In this document: positions 16,525 to 62,120 of the stretch, piece by piece
Position numbering within the stretch: the first letter of the stretch is position 1
How the letters are laid out: each line of letters starts with the position of its first letter
NCBI GenBank assembly: GCA_040756875.1
Contig: JBFLYH010000002.1
Location: 286,526-350,525 of the forward strand
Source of the DNA: a candidate division FCPU426 bacterium
GTDB lineage: Bacteria; Oederibacteriota; JAAXVQ01; JAUVAV01
Reading direction: 5' to 3'
Length of the DNA stretch: 64,000 nucleotides
Notes under the pieces: generated by a model
What the model saw: the letters and a program-made list of their open reading frames with translations, nothing else
What the model was told of the DNA's origin: nothing
The model's database searches: none
Program-made: the position numbers and the translations under genes

Positions 16525-16556
16525 GGCTGGGCCTCGCGAAGCGGTATTGGGCTTAG

Positions 16557-16685
16557 CAGGCTGATGAAAAAGTCCGCAGAGCGGTCTTTTTCGATTGCGT
16601 TGCGTGGAATACCCCATGAAAAATCAGAGTTTTTCACGGGGTAACAGCGTGCTAGCGGAACACATATGGGTTTTTCAGCACCCTG
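16557..16685. mobile_element. MITE copy 1 (129 bp)
   Basis: TIRs CAGGCTGATGAAAAA / TTTTTCAGCACCCTG; TTAG direct repeats at 16553-16556 and 16686-16689; second copy at 48325-48454. Confidence 0.85.
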
Positions 16686-16762
16686 TTAGTATAAACCCGT
16701 GCTCAGGGCGGCGCAACCGGAGACGCGGTTTTTTGCGTGCAACCCGCAATGAGCTGACTTAT

Positions 16763-16839
16763 GATGGAGCCCTACGGCCTGTAAGGCCGTAGCACCCTGC
16801 CTGCCATGCGCATCAAGCATGGCAGGGGGCGACATCCCC
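16763..16839 (-). ncRNA. Candidate structured RNA/repeat motif, copy D (divergent)
   Basis: Plus-strand ATGGAGCC-hairpin-CACCC-hairpin-GGCGACATCCC; same conserved boxes as copies at 25416, 25546 and 25969. Confidence 0.5.
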
Positions 16840-16897
16840 GCAGCGGAAACGTTGGATTTATCCCCATACGATTTCTTCTGCGAAGGGGATATCTTTC

Positions 16898-25057: not shown

Positions 25058-25417
25058 TCACTCCTTGGGTTCTGCGGGCGGCGGAGGCGGCGTAAGCTTC
25101 CGCAGCAACTGCTCGGTGCGTTCGGCTTCTTCGTCGACTATAAAATGCAGTTCCGGCAGCACGCGCCATTCCACTCGCCGCCCGAGCTCGTGCCGGATGA
25201 AGCCCGCGGCGTGCGCCAGCCCCTCCTGGGTCTGGCTGCGCTGTTCGCCGCTGTCCAGGGTCAGAAAGTAGACTTTCGCCTCCCGCAGATCCGGCGTGAT
25301 CTGGGCGCGCGTGATCGTGACCCACGACAGGCGCGGGTCGGAGAGCTTGCGCAGGAGGATGTCCGAGATTTCCCGCACCAGCTGCGAGGCCAGGCGGTCA
25401 ATACGTTTGGGTTTCAT
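25058..25417 (-). CDS. rbfA: Ribosome-binding factor A
   Basis: DPRL..VTIT....PDLREAKVY, GFIR, PELHF. Confidence 0.95.
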   Translation of the reverse strand: MKPKRIDRLASQLVREISDILLRKLSDPRLSWVTITRAQITPDLREAKVYFLTLDSGEQRSQTQEGLAHAAGFIRHELGRRVEWRVLPELHFIVDEEAERTEQLLRKLTPPPPPAEPKE

Positions 25418-25507
25418 GGAGCCTCCCGGCGGTCTTGGCCGGGATACCCCCCTTTCAATTCAGATAATCGCCAGTGGCAGGGCGACATCCCCTAGGCCGG
25501 GCGATTC
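25416..25507 (-). ncRNA. Candidate structured RNA/repeat motif, copy A; abuts the rbfA start codon
   Basis: Gapless ~92-nt match to 25969-26060 with compensatory stem changes. Confidence 0.6.
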
Positions 25508-25541
25508 CTTTCATCCGGCAGAGGCTGTTGTCCACGGCATA

Positions 25542-25623
25542 GGGGATGGAGCCTCCCGGCGGTCTTGGCCGGGATACCCCCTTTCGTTTTCATGATACTT
25601 CTGGAGCCAGGCGACATCCCCGA
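25542..25623 (-). ncRNA. Candidate structured RNA/repeat motif, copy B
   Basis: First ~35 nt identical to copy A; carries the GGCGACATCCC box. Confidence 0.55.
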
Positions 25624-25688
25624 AGCAGTCCATCCCTGGCTCTAATGCGAACGGACGGTCGGTCCTGCGAAGGGGATGGGGGGTGCGG

Positions 25689-25970
25689 TCAGCGCAACTC
25701 AAAGGTGTGGTCCACGAGTTCGGCTTCATGGAACAGGTCGAGCAGTTTCAGGGCTTCGTTCAACGTGGCGTTGGCCTCGCGGCTGCTGGTGTTCACGCAG
25801 GCCACCGCGATCCGCGACCGCTGCCAAAGGTCCTGGTGTTCGACCTCGGCCACGGACACGTTGAGCTGCTGTTTCAGGCGCTCCGTGATTTTGCGCAGCA
25901 GCATCCGCTTGTCCTTCAGGCTGTGATTCTCGGGAAAAAACAGTTCACCACTCAACAGGCCGATGACCAT
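25689..25970 (-). CDS. DUF503 (YlxP-like) protein
   Basis: SLKDKR...NVSVAEV...DLWQR; conserved position between infB and rbfA. Confidence 0.9.
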   Translation of the reverse strand: MVIGLLSGELFFPENHSLKDKRMLLRKITERLKQQLNVSVAEVEHQDLWQRSRIAVACVNTSSREANATLNEALKLLDLFHEAELVDHTFELR

Positions 25971-26060
25971 GGAGCCCCCCGGCGGTTTACGCCGGGGTAC
26001 CCCCCTTTCGAGTCAAATCATCTCTGGTGGCAAGGCGACATCCCTTGCGCCGGGCAATTC
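25969..26060 (-). ncRNA. Candidate structured RNA/repeat motif, copy C; abuts the DUF503 start codon
   Basis: Gapless match to copy A. Confidence 0.6.
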
Positions 26061-26112
26061 GTCTTTTTAACAAGCGACCGGTGTCTCCGGCGCAAGGGAT
26101 CATCAGGTCCAC

Positions 26113-28275
26113 TCAGAGCTTCTGCGCCACGGCTTCGAGGACGAACGCTTCGATCACGTCCCCGGGTTCGTACGCTTTGAATCCGCTCACAGACAGCCCG
26201 CATTCCATGCCCGCGGGCACTTCCTTGGCGTCGTCCTTGAACCGTTTCAGGGACTCGATCTTGCCGGTGTGCAGGATCTGGCCGCGGCGCACCACCTTGG
26301 CCTGCGCGCCGCGCGTGATTTTGCCGCTGGTGACCTGCGAGCCCGCGGCCGTGACGCCCGAGGACAGTTTGAACACGTTGCGCACCTCGGCCTGGCCGAT
26401 CGGCACTTCGTGGTAATGGGGCTCCAGCAGGCCCTCCATGGCCGCCTTGACGTCCTCCACCACGTCGTAAATCACCGAATAAATGCGCACGTCCACCTGC
26501 TCGCTCTGAGCGACCTTGTCCACGCCGGCTTCGGCCTTGACGTTGAAGCCGAGCACAATGGCGTTGCTGGCCGTGGCCAGCAGGATGTCGCGCTCCGTGA
26601 TGTTGCCGACCGCGCTGTGAATGCTGGTCAGGCGGACCTTCTCGGTGGACAGGCCCTCCAGGGAGTTGGCCAGCACCTCGGCCGACCCCTGCACGTCCGC
26701 CTTGATGATGATTTTCAGCTCCTTGATGGTGCCTTCCTTGATCTGATCCCTGAGGTTGTCCAGGTTGATTTTATGGCTGTTGCTCAGGTCCTGTTCGCGT
26801 TTGATCATCTGCCGCTTCATGGCGATCTGCCGGGCGAGCTTGTCGCTGGCCAGCACCTGGAACAGGTCGCCGGCCGTGGGCACGCCCGAGAGACCCAACA
26901 CCTCGGCCGGCATGCCCGGCCCGACGGACTTGAGCGCCGCGCCGCGTTCGTTCATCAGCGCCCGCACGCGGCCGAACTGCACGCCGGTCACCACCGGGTC
27001 GCCGACGTTGAGCGTGCCGCGCTGCACCAGCACCGTGGCCACCGGGCCGCGGCCGCGGTCCAGCTTGGCCTCGATCACCGTGCCCTTGGCGTGGGCCTTG
27101 CGGTTGGCTTTGAGTTCGAGCATTTCCGCCTCGAGCAGGATCATTTCCAGCATTTTCTCCAGGCCGATCCGCTTCTTCGCGGAAATTTCCACGAAGATCG
27201 TTTTGCCGCCCCATTCCTCGGAAACCAGGTTGTACTTGGTCAGTTCCTGGCGCACCCGGCTGGGGTCCGCGCCGGGCTTGTCGATTTTATTGACCGCCAC
27301 GATGATCGGCACATTGGCCGCCTTGGCGTGGTCGATGGCTTCAATGGTCTGCGGCTGCACGCCGTCGTCGGCGGCCACCACCAGCACCACCACGTCCGTC
27401 ACCTGGGCGCCGCGGGCGCGCAGGGTGGTGAACGCCTCGTGGCCCGGCGTGTCAAGGAACGTCACATACCCTTTGGGCAGCTTGACCTGGTAGGCGCCGA
27501 TGTGCTGGGTGATGCCGCCCGCCTCGCCGTCCATGACGTTGGTTTCGCGGATGGCGTCCAAGAGCGAGGTCTTGCCGTGGTTGACGTGACCCATGATGGT
27601 CACCACCGGCGGGCGGGGCTGCAAATCCTCGGGTCGGTCCGCGACTTCTTCCTGGGCCAACAGGTCTTCCCCGTATATTTCCTCATATTCGGGCTGATAG
27701 CCGTATTCGGACAAAAGAATTTCGATGGTGTCCTGGTCCAGGCGCTGGTTGATGGTGGCGAACACGCCCAGGCCCATCAATTTTTTAATGACTTCAGCCG
27801 GCTTGACGCCCAGGCGTTCGGCCACTTCGCCCACGTTCACCGTGCTGGGCAGGCGCAGGGGCGGCAGGTCTTCCTTGGCTTTGGGCGGCGCAGCCACGGC
27901 GACCGGCGCTGGTGCCTTGACCGGTTCGGGTTCGGGTTCCGGCTCGTACAGCGGCTCGGGTTCGGGAACATACACGGGTTCGGGACGGCTGGGGGCCGGC
28001 GTTTCGATCGGCGCCGGTTCAACAGCCGCCGGAACCGGCGCGGCCACGGCTTCGGCCGGCCGCGGCGCCATCTGGGTCATGCCCGGAACCATTGCGTCCT
28101 CGGGGATCTCGTCCTCGCCCCAATGGCGCTTGATGTAAGCCACGGTCTCGTCCTCGAGCACGCTCATGTGGCTTTTAACCTGGATGCGCATTTTCTCCAA
28201 TTCGCCCATCAGTTCCTTGGAGGTCAGCTTCAATTCCTTGGCCAATTCGAATACGCGTACTTTTTGGTGCGTCAT
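26113..28275 (-). CDS. infB: Translation initiation factor IF-2
   Basis: IF2-N domains, [28 protein letters not shown]. Confidence 0.97.
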
Positions 28276-48270: not shown

Positions 48271-48324
48271 GGCAGTTGCTTGCTCCTTTGGGGTTGTCGG
48301 TTCGTGCGTATTGCCCGTTACTAA

Positions 48325-48454
48325 CAGGGTGCTGAAAAATCCATATATGCTCCGCTGGCACCCTGTTACCCCATGAAAAATCTCTGGTTTTTCATGGGGT
48401 ATTCCACGCAACGCGATCGAAAAAGTCCGCTCTGCGGGCTTTTTCATCAGCCTG
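48325..48454. mobile_element. MITE copy 2 (130 bp), inverted relative to copy 1
   Basis: CTAA direct repeats at 48321-48324 and 48455-48458; same TIRs. Confidence 0.85.
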
Positions 48455-49642
48455 CTAAGTATCGGCAGTCCCCGGCTGGGCCGAGGGCCTTTTTTTCTCC
48501 GTTAGTTGGCGGTAAATTTCCAGCAATTCCCCGGCCTTGGCCGCGGCGGAATACTGTATGACCTGGGCCTTGGCCTCGGCCTGTTTGGCCGCGTACCAGG
48601 CGGGATCGGACAGCAACCGCTCCACGGCCGCGGCAAAAGCCGCCGGCTGGTTCGGCACCAGTTCTCCGCCGCCGTGTTTCAGCGCTTCGCGCGCGCCCAT
48701 GGCGCCCACGGCCACGCACGGCTTGCCCGCGGCCATGGCTTCGTTCAGCACCAGGCCCTGCGTTTCGGTTTTCGAGGAGAGCACGAACACATCCGCGGCG
48801 GCGTAAAGATCCAGCCTGCCCTGGCCCCGCACGTATCCCGCGAAAACCACGCGGTCAGCCAAACGACGGCGCCGGACTTCGTCCTGCATGGCCTCGAGGC
48901 CCGGCCCGGAACCGGCCAGCACCAGCCGCAGGCGGGGATGGGCCGGAGCCAGGCGCTCCACCACTTCCAGCAGCAGCTCGAGGTTCTTCTCGCCGGAGAT
49001 CCGCCCCAGGGAGAGCAACACCTGGTCCTGGTCCGAGAGGTTCCAGGCCGCGCGCCCGCGGGCCTGCTGGCCTTTTTGAAACTCCTCCAGATCCACGCCC
49101 GTGGGGATGACCCGGATCGGCGCCGTAACCCGGTAGCGCCGCAGGATCCGCGCCATGGCCCGCGACGGCGTCACCACCAGGTCGTGCCGGTTGCAGAAAG
49201 AACGGGACACGCGCCGCACCAGCCACTGCCCGGTCCGCTGCGGCAGCGGGCGCATGTAATGCTCGACGTAACGGGCGAAATACGTGTGATAGGTATGCAC
49301 CGTGGGCACGCCGTGGCGCCGCGCCCAGCGCAGGAGCATGAGCCCCAGCGAAAAGGGCGTGTGCGTGTGCACCACATCCAGCTTCAGTTCCGGCAGGCGG
49401 CGCAGCAGGAGCAGGGATTTGGGGTGCAGGGGTTTGGCCAGGCGGTCTTCGGGATTGTTGCGCGGCCGGCGGCTGGGAAAGCGCCAGACGTCGGTTTCCT
49501 CGGGTTCCGGGCCGGGAAAAGCGGGCGCGAACACGACCACGCGATGCCCCAGGCGCCGGAATTCGCGGGCAAAGGTGTCCACGGATTGGACCACGCCGTT
49601 GATGCGGGGGGCGAAGGTGTCCGTGGCCAGGCCGATGTTCAT
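48455..49642 (-). CDS. GT4 glycosyltransferase, paralog 1
   Basis: TDTFAPRINGV, HTHTPF, ETQGLVLNEAMAAG. Confidence 0.9.
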   Translation of the reverse strand: MNIGLATDTFAPRINGVVQSVDTFAREFRRLGHRVVVFAPAFPGPEPEETDVWRFPSRRPRNNPEDRLAKPLHPKSLLLLRRLPELKLDVVHTHTPFSLGLMLLRWARRHGVPTVHTYHTYFARYVEHYMRPLPQRTGQWLVRRVSRSFCNRHDLVVTPSRAMARILRRYRVTAPIRVIPTGVDLEEFQKGQQARGRAAWNLSDQDQVLLSLGRISGEKNLELLLEVVERLAPAHPRLRLVLAGSGPGLEAMQDEVRRRRLADRVVFAGYVRGQGRLDLYAAADVFVLSSKTETQGLVLNEAMAAGKPCVAVGAMGAREALKHGGGELVPNQPAAFAAAVERLLSDPAWYAAKQAEAKAQVIQYSAAAKAGELLEIYRQLTEKKRPSAQPGTADT

Positions 49643-61886: not shown

Positions 61887-62120
61887 TGGGTCTCAGGGCG
61901 AGACCAATGGAACGGCGGATATTAGCACAATCGGAGGGGAGATGGCAAGGGGATTTTAACCTTAAATGCAGGCTAAAATAATGAAACCCTCTCCCCGGCG
62001 AAGCTGTGGGAGAGGGTGGGGGTGAGGGGTCCCGCAATTCTCATTTTGGAATGCTCATCAGAGTCTTGTATCCCCTGCCCCTCCAGGGAGGGGAATTTTA
62101 ATAATGAATTTGGTGGGATT

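Follow-up and report, generated by a model that had tools for sequence, protein, structure and literature searches.

The infB-DUF503-rbfA operon is encoded on the minus strand of the window, by which we mean the whole 64,000-nt stretch of DNA that was analysed. Four copies of one repeat (A-D) are found in the window, three of them (A, B and C) within this operon, and the identity of the operon genes was checked with Pfam (Table 1). The first-pass annotation had described the copies as a structured, RNA-like element with two hairpins, and had proposed either a cis-regulatory RNA controlling ribosome-maturation genes or a domesticated mobile repeat of single-stranded DNA or RNA. We re-read the sequences given there for the four copies and found them at their places on the minus strand. 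The statement that two copies run into start codons also stands: copy C ends in an AT (25970-25969) that supplies the first two bases of the DUF503 start codon, and the terminal AT of copy A (25417-25416) does so for rbfA. Copies A and B are arranged head to tail, because the terminal CCAT of copy B (25549-25546) doubles as the left target of copy A. Copy D is separated from the next same-strand ORF downstream by 147 nt; it had been called divergent and proves to be a full, ordinary member of the family.

Table 1. Repeat copies, their parts and the operon genes, in the numbering of the 64,000-nt window; the top strand of the element is the minus strand here, and the element proper starts at the CCC that follows the left tetranucleotide and runs through the terminal CCAT.
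Feature	Position	Strand	Remark
Copy C, element proper	25969-26098	minus	84.8 bits (covariance model)
Copy B, element proper	25546-25675	minus	75.2 bits (covariance model)
Copy A, element proper	25416-25545	minus	81.5 bits (covariance model)
Copy D, full family member	16764-16888	minus	87.6 bits (covariance model)
Right-end hairpin IP_R (hairpin 2 of the first-pass annotation)	C 25977-25997; A 25424-25444; B 25554-25574	minus	covarying helix 4
Right guide tetranucleotide GGTA	C 25998-26001; A 25445-25448; B 25575-25578	minus	directly 5' of hairpin foot
Right cleavage-site tetranucleotide CCAT (predicted)	C 25969-25972; A 25416-25419; B 25546-25549	minus	ends 8 nt 3' of hairpin foot
Left flanking (target) tetranucleotide	C 26099-26102 (TGAT); B 25676-25679 (CCAT); D 16889-16892 (ATAT)	minus	
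Invariant GGGATGTCGCC motif, copy C	26034-26044	minus	GGGAT within it is the 3' strand of helix P1
Long helix P1, copy C	26041-26054 paired with 26087-26100	minus	
rbfA	25058-25417	minus	PF02033, 103.9 bits
DUF503 gene	25689-25970	minus	PF04456, 99.6 bits
infB	26113-28275	minus	IF-2 domains (Pfam)
Empty site, TTCCAT followed by TGG, junction after CCAT	61911-61914	not assigned	G001 has copy L061 there

Individual units of the family are 114-185 nt long, mostly 125-140 nt, which is too short for a transposase gene. On the top strand, a flanking tetranucleotide ending in AT is followed by about 15 nt that close with a 4-nt left guide, and then by a GC hairpin (IP_L). The core comprises a conserved GTGAATGCG-like stretch, an invariant GGGATGTCGCC and a variable middle, and the right part is made up of the right guide (GGTA, 4 nt), another GC hairpin (IP_R) and an 8-nt tail with CCAT at its end. 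The two hairpins are near-identical and lie close to the two ends (for example CCCCGGGC..GCCCGGGG); the left one is degenerate or absent in some copies, A-D of the window included. In the aligned units one end reads CCCC.. and the other ..CTCCAT; neither is the other in inverted form, so terminal inverted repeats are absent. The first-pass annotation had thus marked real copies but captured only the 3'-terminal ~90 nt of a unit of about 125-140 nt, with ~40 nt more at the 5' side.

The same holds in part for the fold. Both end hairpins covary (helix 3, 91% paired; helix 4, 94.6% of cells paired), and in helix 4, which had been described as hairpin 2, eight of the 11 pairs vary on both sides among 76 copies. 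Within the stems, G-U or U-G cells are more frequent than A-C or C-A cells (107 versus 43), an excess that favours folding of the minus strand, as had been proposed. The proposed hairpin 1 with its GAUGUCG loop was not reproduced: a stem of at least 3 bp can be drawn in 16 of 70 copies, and shifting the partner by a single base yields 17 of 70. The GGGGAU that had been assigned to it pairs instead with the unit's 5' end (AUCCCC...), and together they form a long covarying helix, P1.

We searched genomes with a covariance model of the unit. The model places about 39-42 copies in this genome; its 42 genome-wide matches undo the tie to the infB-DUF503-rbfA operon that had been drawn earlier. Copies are also present in ten other genomes of the same taxonomic family (81, 21, 10, 8, 7, 5, 3, 1, 1 and 1), the highest number being that of the congeneric genome G001, and the model gave no match in any of four genomes of the sister family. 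Many of the G001 copies occupy sites that are empty in this genome. A pattern scan of genome contigs returned at least 80 loci, nearly all of which are chance matches in GC-rich genomes; among the loci listed, the model keeps eight at E<=0.001, namely six from the G001 record, one from an Omnitrophota MAG and one from Mycolicibacterium, the last being a weak match (25.3 bits) that we take for chance. The three operon copies are shared with G001, where those before and after DUF503 are without the last hairpin. The operon of G004, G005 and G006, which belong to three other genera, carries no copies and has short ordinary spacers instead. In two activated-sludge runs from a single study, contigs of relatives likewise have infB-DUF503 and DUF503-rbfA joined without elements, but their likeness is only 80-90% and they contribute little beyond the comparison with the three genera.

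These results bear on the reading of the repeats as primarily a cis-acting regulatory or leader RNA, whose hairpins would mask a Shine-Dalgarno-like G-run and control rbfA, DUF503 and other downstream genes. The genomic context can be cited on both sides: most copies are sense-oriented before a gene and nine of 39 end on the ATG of an ORF of at least 70 aa, yet six of 39 run against the replichore, five of these being antisense to both neighbouring genes (by crude gene calls), and several copies lie between convergent genes, one between two tRNA genes and one inside an unrelated MITE. The structure is similarly divided. Covarying stems, the preponderance of G-U cells and a G-run within the 3' arm of the last hairpin are what such an RNA could present, but the proposed hairpin 1 is not conserved and, as noted, two of the G001 operon copies have dispensed with the last hairpin. 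An Rfam search of the window, suggested in the first-pass annotation as a check, gave no match at gathering score and, with the limit set at E<=10, just two chance-level matches (E 3.4 and 7.1), which agrees with an RNA outside known families. The distribution argues the other way, as the operon copies are specific to the genus and the family's members are scattered, numbering from 1 to 81 in a genome. We regard the leader-RNA reading as very improbable, and an operon-specific regulatory RNA is not supported. For annotation, this disposes of an attractive but false trail, that of a novel riboswitch-like RNA within the infB operon, and leaves a repeat family to be masked in genomes of a poorly known lineage.

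The differences between this genome and G001 allow filled and empty sites to be compared. Of 25 pairs examined, three are clean, and the remaining junctions are too diverged to read. When the G001 element is removed in silico, the sequence becomes collinear with this genome at all three, with the junction after CCAT at L041, after CAAT at L071 and after CAAT or CGAT at L080. The copy within the MITE sits precisely behind TTCCAT, and its insertion neither added nor removed a base. No target-site duplication is present in the three clean pairs or at the MITE-internal insertion. A classical MITE was rejected on account of both features, terminal inverted repeats and target duplication being absent. 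Because the 5' and 3' dinucleotides correlate, a two-base target duplication or crossover (AY..AY) was also considered; it fails on two points, as variants of the first 5' base (G for A) recur in one subfamily without being mirrored at the 3' end, and the two bases preceding AT follow the left guide. Helitron/IS91-like, IS607-like and IS110-like mechanisms were considered and dropped on the AY..AY grounds. Interpretations of the conserved motifs as a CsrA site, a tRNA-like structure, a ribozyme or a promoter, assessed by eye, found no support.

The dependence of the flank on the left guide recalls the rule described for IS608, in which each cleavage site is paired by the 4 nt located 5' of a hairpin foot, as in AAAG/TTAC (PMC3201880). 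We compared the left guide, that is the 4 nt before the hairpin foot, with the left tetranucleotide in 34 copies that have a canonical left hairpin and distinct flanks, using 20000 permutations. The two are complementary at position 1 in 28 of 34 copies (0 of 20000 permutations, p <5e-5), at position 2 in 23 (p=0.0004) and at position 4 in 29 (p=0.003), with position 3 not significant (5 of 34, p 0.68); about 20 of the 34 rows are from a single subfamily expanded in G001, and the association leans on those. Guides beginning GG.. occur with CC.. targets in 13 cases and AA.. guides with TT.. targets in eight, and the left guide AAAG goes with the target TTAC, the very pair of IS608. On the right side, where GGTA is complementary to the terminal CCAT position by position, 44 copies include 23 with GGTA/CCAT, three with GGTG/CCAC and two with GGTG/CCAT. 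That covariation reaches flanking bases outside the repeat is a further point against a leader RNA. The subfamilies represent a natural retargeting series (guides GGCA, AAxA and AAAG with targets CCAT, TTAT and TTAC), and this series lends support from wild genomes to the principle, worked out for IS608, that guides direct the choice of target.

As far as the cited descriptions of IS608 and of IS200/IS605 "peel and paste" transposition go (PMC3201880, PMC5027513), the likeness extends to subterminal hairpins at both ends, to a left cleavage site in the flank and a right one within the element (both predicted here), to 4-nt guides that are canonical at positions 1, 2 and 4 but not at position 3, and to insertion 3' of the target without duplication. 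Unlike IS608, the element has no tnpA between its ends, its usual targets are CCAT or TTAT, and its mover is putative; its predicted cleavage sites lie about 15 nt 5' of the left hairpin foot and 8 nt 3' of the right one, versus 19 and 10 in IS608 (PMC3201880).

We conclude that the repeats are very probably copies of a non-autonomous IS200/IS605-type transposon, i.e. a palindrome-associated transposable element (PATE). In proposing a mobile repeat of single-stranded DNA the first-pass annotation was essentially right, while no sign of the domestication it had added was found. By analogy with IS608, a Y1 HUH transposase supplied in trans would bind both hairpins where the lagging-strand template is single-stranded, and the guides would locate the cleavage sites via base pairing; the top strand would then leave as a circle and be pasted 3' of a tetranucleotide matching the left guide, with no duplication. 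A bias to the lagging-strand template is reported for IS608 and ISDra2 in the source cited (PMC5027513). In this genome that template carries the top strand for 33 of 39 copies; 1797 of 2270 crudely called genes (79%) are likewise co-oriented with replication, so replication and transcription are not separable in the orientation of the copies. Many copies in random orientation and context had been named earlier as the mark of a plain repeat: the copies are indeed many and genome-wide, but their orientation is non-random.

The transposon reading also accounts for the fusions to start codons. Target and element both end in AT, so that an insertion between the AT and the G of a start codon rebuilds the ATG. 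Such an insertion would swap the gene's own leader for the G-rich 3' end of the element, and it was probably in this way that copies A and C reached the rbfA and DUF503 start codons, in a forebear of the present genus. Start codons can be hit without being destroyed by an element that has an end mimicking its target. It could be added that some copies have been adopted by the host as portable, hairpin-masked translation-initiation regions (G-run, CUCC, AUG), an addition that we think unlikely, although the three operon copies have persisted from before the genus divided into its two species and, with nine of 39 copies fused to start codons, the native leaders there are gone, the relatives' own Shine-Dalgarno sequences being visible in their element-free operons. 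Start-codon fusion follows from the target rule alone, and deletion of the hairpin in two of the three G001 operon copies argues against selection for masking. The extension by which about ten genes, or rbfA, DUF503, an HPr-like gene and some five more in this genome, would share control that depends on opening of the hairpin is in our judgement similarly unlikely. If true, a selfish single-stranded DNA transposon would have rewired translation initiation of a small regulon, with the hairpin opened by, for example, temperature or a helicase.

Autonomous relatives were found among related genomes. IS200-type elements encoding a 142-aa Y1 TnpA (PF01797, 100 bits) are present in G004, G012 and G057. 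In alignments with G012 and G057 the ends of these autonomous elements are collinear with those of the repeat; the G004 copy has the same left end, and its right end is lost at a contig edge. Repeat copies of G003 and G026 agree with the IS in all 18 of 18 positions of their right hairpin, and the autonomous elements display the same change, a last guide base A going with a terminal T and G with a terminal C. The overall likeness is modest, consisting of hairpins and short motifs, and the model of the repeat scores the IS ends at only 5.5 and 11.8 bits, which weighs against the transposon reading. Profile searches with PF01797 found no IS200-type tnpA in this genome or in G001, the two richest in copies, and a protein search gave no match in either at E<=1e-20; this too weighs against the transposon reading. 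An autonomous copy was also sought in this genome as a 5' half and a 3' half separated by 0.5-5 kb, and none was found. For TnpB, PF07282 had no match in this genome, and PF01385 had none in this genome, G001, G003, G004 or G006.

In this genome and in G001 alike, the Y1 genes are limited to a pair of RAYT-like genes encoding proteins of 336-350 aa, and the element could be a REP/REPIN-like repeat of the same class that is handled by these proteins rather than by an IS200-type TnpA. They score 75.6 and 79.8 bits against NF047646 (cut-off 80) and have close homologues in 11 of 11 genomes of the family, but more distant homologues are found also in genomes without the element. Three element copies of G001 lie within ~16 kb of its two RAYT-like genes, whereas in this genome no element-like hairpins, inverted repeats or model matches are found beside the two genes. 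Copy numbers are unlinked, as G007 has 11 RAYT-like matches and one copy and G001 has two matches and 81 copies, and the ends of the element resemble IS200-type ends instead. A RAYT-like mover therefore seems improbable to us. REP/REPIN sequences, as far as they are described together with RAYT (TnpA-REP) proteins in the cited work, are likewise repeats with a hairpin, akin to the ends of IS200/IS605 elements, and a Y1 HUH protein is their presumed mover (PMC3333891, PMC8266576), and RAYT-like genes are present here; the element differs in its larger units with two hairpins in direct order plus a core, in not flanking RAYT-like genes and in the lack of a link to their number.

The closest known counterparts are the PATEs of Haloquadratum walsbyi and the PATE-like elements of Geobacillus stearothermophilus (PMC3119063, PMC10055086). 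In the account cited, PATEs, like the element, have neither terminal inverted repeats nor target duplications, and carry near-end palindromes that are alike and also similar to the ones found in IS200/IS605 transposons; copies are many and differ between close relatives, parts are lost via deletion between repeats, and small unrelated repeats are nested in the palindromes (PMC3119063). The element is a further instance of this already known kind, in a poorly known host lineage; a literature search, which did not extend to the sequence supplements of the PATE papers, did not find the element itself in print. Relative to PATEs as described there, it belongs to an uncultivated bacterial lineage, has no TnpB or omega-RNA partner that we could find, possesses an additional long-range helix and the invariant GGGATGTCGCC, and uses a target tetranucleotide resembling its own end. 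P1 and GGGATGTCGCC are without a known role in IS200/IS605 ends, which counts against the transposon reading. These two features may reflect a constraint at the RNA level, and we infer that GGGATGTCGCC may be what is left of an ancestral tnpA, namely of its ribosome-binding site and ATG.

Classical MITEs, ERIC and Correia elements are similar to the element in form, being short, structured, intergenic, often co-transcribed and able to alter the expression of neighbours, but terminal inverted repeats are characteristic of them, and target duplications usually so. This genome does contain a true MITE of that sort, which looks quite unlike the element.

The four stretches described in the first-pass annotation were found on the minus strand where it had placed them, but they represent only part of a longer unit: with all copies anchored on the invariant GGATGTCGCC, similarity continues for about 60 nt further 5' and reaches a conserved AUCCCC. 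The complete unit measures ~125-140 nt, and copies A and B lie head to tail with two bases in common. The gene identities proposed for the surrounding infB-DUF503-rbfA operon were correct (RBFA, DUF503 and IF-2 domains were detected). The Rfam search gave zero matches at the gathering score in the window and two chance-level matches at E<=10 around the copies.

Coordinates of repeat copies and related features (C1, C2 and C3 are contigs of the source genome G000; G001 is a congeneric genome; L-numbers are loci of compared genomes)
Feature	Location	Strand	Remark
Copy A unit	window 25416-25547	minus	
Copy B unit	window 25546-25677	minus	
Copy C unit	window 25969-26100	minus	
Copy D unit	window 16764-16890	minus	
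Copies C' and B' (G001), without right hairpin	L035 2640-2720 and 3060-3110		deletion exactly between two G-runs
Filled/empty site	L041		empty ..GGCCAT/GAG..; unit directly after CCAT in filled site
Insertion junctions	L071 and L080		after CAAT or CGAT
Supported helix, long-range	5' end with GGGGAU		covariation, 76 copies
Supported helix, GC hairpin	inside long-range helix		covariation, 76 copies
Supported helix, 3' GC hairpin			covariation, 76 copies
TnpA gene	G004		same taxonomic family as G000
TnpA gene	G012		sister taxonomic family; 95% protein identity
TnpA gene, two copies	G057		75% identity
RAYT-like genes, 336 aa	C1:1033652-1034659 (L002) and 1039807-1040787 (L001)		5 kb apart
Classical MITE	window 16553-16690 and 48317-48463; C2:876953-877096; C1:224963-225100; others		
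Shorter sister repeat family	C1:74712-74809, 246362-246459	+	
Shorter sister repeat family	C1:941609-941707, 1299018-1299115, 1586453-1586550; C2:214657-214747	-	
Nested repeat, examples	C2:877113-877297, C1:1466290-1466471, C1:1099586-1099719, C2:10172-10321		
Giant ORFs	C1 upstream of 412959; C3 upstream of 94594		crude gene calls

The exact motif GGATGTCGCC occurs 53 times in the 3.22-Mb source genome, where a sequence profile found 41 matches and a covariance model made from 19 copies (alignment A1, structure R1) found 42 at E<=0.01. Our working set comprises 39 loci; three weak matches were left out (a member of a shorter sister repeat family, an isolated 3' half, and a split copy's second piece). 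In a search of 41 genomes, including the source genome, the model matched all ten other genomes of the taxonomic family, with 81, 21, 10, 8, 7, 5, 3, 1, 1 and 1 copies, none of the four genomes of the sister taxonomic family, and gave two weak single matches elsewhere in the phylum. The lone copy in one family member (G007) precedes glmM and that in another (G010) lies between two tRNA genes. Copy counts and contexts vary across genomes; therefore the family is dispersed and has no tie to ribosome-maturation genes.

This dispersal bears on the proposal that the element is a cis-regulatory RNA of the operon, as does the operon itself in relatives. G001, which is 84-85% identical to the source genome over matched operon pieces, carries copies at all three operon sites, two of them lacking the last hairpin through a deletion between G-runs and the third carrying a nested insert. 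In the two deleted copies an unpaired G-run is left before the ATG. The operon of three other genera (G004, G005 and G006) contains no repeat copies. In G004 and G006, infB is followed by DUF503 after ~30-60 nt without a repeat, and DUF503 by rbfA after ~50 nt; the ribosome-binding sites there are ordinary and purine-rich. The matched coordinates in G005 have room for DUF503 and short spacers only. On this comparison of sequences we reject the view that the repeats are an old regulator of the operon. In one relative's contig (run X2, compared with window 25422-25723) only ~14 nt separate the DUF503 stop from the rbfA start, with CCCCC GCTCC before the ATG; this spacer may represent either a target that was never hit or a footprint-like trace left by both ends of the element.

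Many of the 40 G001 copies that we fetched with flanks sit where the flanks are contiguous in the source genome. We aligned 25 filled/empty pairs, of which those other than the clean ones were too diverged at the junction for reading; the cleanest pairs show no target duplication, and the repeat has no inverted ends. One copy splits an unrelated MITE precisely after TTCCAT, and the MITE resumes at the next base beyond. The clean junctions therefore delimit an element proper that starts at CCCC and ends in CCAT, the preceding tetranucleotide belonging to the target; AT was considered as the element start and rejected, since these junctions place the start two bases later.

Targets and element alike terminate in AT, which explains why copies A and C end on start codons, as had been noticed at the outset. 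After insertion at ..AT/G, the original AT would remain on the left of the element and a new one would precede the G; the gene's own leader would be displaced, and the element's G-run and then CUCC would precede the AUG. The terminal AT and the next G open an ORF of at least 70 aa in 9 of the 39 copies, two of which are doubtful (one in a MITE, one of 72 aa). Copy A probably targeted the CCAT of copy B, which would account for the two bases that they share.

In IS608, according to PMC3201880, each cleavage site is recognised because it pairs with a tetranucleotide guide immediately 5' of a hairpin foot, and non-canonical interactions contribute to this recognition. On the left, the site TTAC is part of the flank, 19 nt away from the hairpin, and its guide is AAAG; on the right, the site is internal, 10 nt 3' of the hairpin. 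The element inserts on the top strand, 3' of TTAC, and duplicates nothing. The corresponding distances in the repeat are ~15 and 8 nt. Among 34 copies selected for a canonical left hairpin and for flanks that differ, about 20 of them rows of a subfamily expanded in G001, the left guide complements the left tetranucleotide at position 1 in 28/34 (0 of 20000 permutations as high), at position 2 in 23/34 (permutation p=0.0004), at position 3 in 5/34 (not significant by permutation) and at position 4 in 29/34 (permutation p=0.003). The weak third position recalls IS608, where TTAC/AAAG is also uncomplemented there (A with A; PMC3201880). A GG.. guide accompanies a CC.. target in 13 of these copies and AA.. 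accompanies TT.. in eight; AAAG-guide copies are preceded by TTAC or TAGC, and the two AAGG-guide copies by TTAC and by TTAT. Positions 1 and 2 are flanking bases, beyond which the sequence differs at every locus. Short of target choice, it is difficult to account for their agreement with an internal guide. At the right end, GGTA pairs with CCAT in 23/44 copies, GGTG with CCAC in 3/44 and GGTG with CCAT in 2/44. Judged from sequence, the repeat follows the IS608 guide rule. Dispersed copies, empty sites, absence of duplication and IS608-like guides essentially bear out the other reading that the first-pass annotation had offered, a domesticated ssDNA/RNA mobile repeat, in its ssDNA form; signs of domestication were not found.

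On two contigs of the source genome the GC skew switches clearly, and the genes of this genome are strongly co-oriented. The top strand (minus in the window) is the lagging-strand template in 33/39 copies; PMC5027513 reports the same bias for IS608, ISDra2 and further members of the family. Since 1797/2270 genes (79%, crude calls) are co-oriented in the same sense, this bias cannot separate replication from transcription. Five of the six exceptional copies are antisense to both neighbour genes in the crude gene calls.

Pairing statistics were obtained from 76 copies aligned to the model (A2), and since this alignment was fitted to the model and is biased in its favour, the 89.8% of paired cells observed, against 83.0% when shuffled, should be read accordingly. 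Both-sided changes occur in 24 of 29 pairs, the observed values were reached by 0/500 shuffles, and slid partners pair at 41-61%. Three helices are supported, among them the 3' GC hairpin already recognised as the second hairpin. The proposed first hairpin is not family-wide: its GAUGUCG loop is closed by at least 3 bp in 16/70 copies, and a one-base slide of the partner gives 17/70. In stems, G-U/U-G cells are more numerous than A-C/C-A cells (107 vs 43), and therefore the minus strand folds, as had been argued. This strand preference fits single-stranded DNA as well as RNA. The two strands have similar folding energies. Even distant copies, from two Omnitrophota MAGs, retain the motif GGGAUGUCGCC.

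A 142-aa Y1 transposase gene (TnpA; PF01797 at 100 bits) was identified in three genomes, G004, G012 and G057. The two copies in G057 delimit the IS ends, and the repeat aligns collinearly with both of them (A3, A4): on the left a tetranucleotide, 15-16 nt, a hairpin and then GTGAAGGC or GTGAATGG, and on the right ..TAGTA, the same hairpin and an 8-nt tail. In G003 and G026, the repeat copies have a right hairpin that agrees with the IS hairpin at 18/18 positions. The IS also shows the paired change seen in the repeat, with last guide base A and terminal T in G057, and G and C in G012. This similarity covers short stretches, and the IS ends score only 5.5 and 11.8 bits with the model of the repeat. 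The spacing between the left hairpin and the invariant GGGGAUG of the repeat resembles that between the left hairpin and the tnpA ribosome-binding site and start codon in the IS; GGGGAUG may be a relic of these signals of a lost tnpA.

Neither an IS200-type tnpA nor TnpB was found in G000 or G001. The sole Y1 genes of the source genome are the two RAYT-like genes, which score 75.6 and 79.8 bits where the cut-off is 80. Their homologues are present in 11/11 genomes of the family, in numbers that do not track repeat copy number, and also in some genomes without the repeat; no repeat-like hairpins were found flanking RAYT-like genes. A conserved stretch of ~70 nt, common to the two genes, comes after each of them together with a large ORF that looks secreted, and tandem ~70-nt repeats lie upstream of the gene at L001. 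The mover of the repeat could be a lost transposase, an unassembled one, or one encoded by a transient IS. The last is suggested by the TnpA proteins at L197 in G004 and L202 in G012: they come from different taxonomic families and are 95% identical, which also suggests recent horizontal transfer of the IS200-type element.

PATEs are described in PMC3119063 and PMC10055086 as lacking inverted ends and duplication, having similar near-terminal palindromes, being too short for a transposase, losing core parts by deletion between repeats, and harbouring small repeats within their palindromes. The repeat shows every trait listed there. We conclude that it is a PATE-type element in a little-studied lineage and not a new class of regulatory RNA; a noteworthy side effect would be the replacement of gene leaders at start codons by the element.

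Other repeats are present as well. A separate classical MITE of ~140 bp is bounded by terminal inverted repeats (TTAACAGG.TGCTGA .. TCAGCCTGTTAA); it contains internal hairpins, its 3' part resembles a terminator, and at least 10 of its copies show 80-87% identity to one G001 copy. The shorter sister repeat family (~100 nt, six copies in G000) has the same two-GC-hairpin plan, a ..CTCCAC end and the right guide GGAG, and lacks GGGATGTCGCC and the middle part. Several element copies contain a nested repeat of ~45-50 nt (..CCGACCGGA .. GGGACTTCC .. CGGTCGCC), located after GTCGCC or in loops of the element's hairpins; its GGGACTTCY motif occurs 62 times in G000, and the nested repeat is reminiscent of Haloquadratum, where PATE palindromes are targeted by small mobile repeats. 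Finally, giant ORFs of ~12,500 and ~4,500 codons, as called by a crude gene caller, adjoin element copies in G000.
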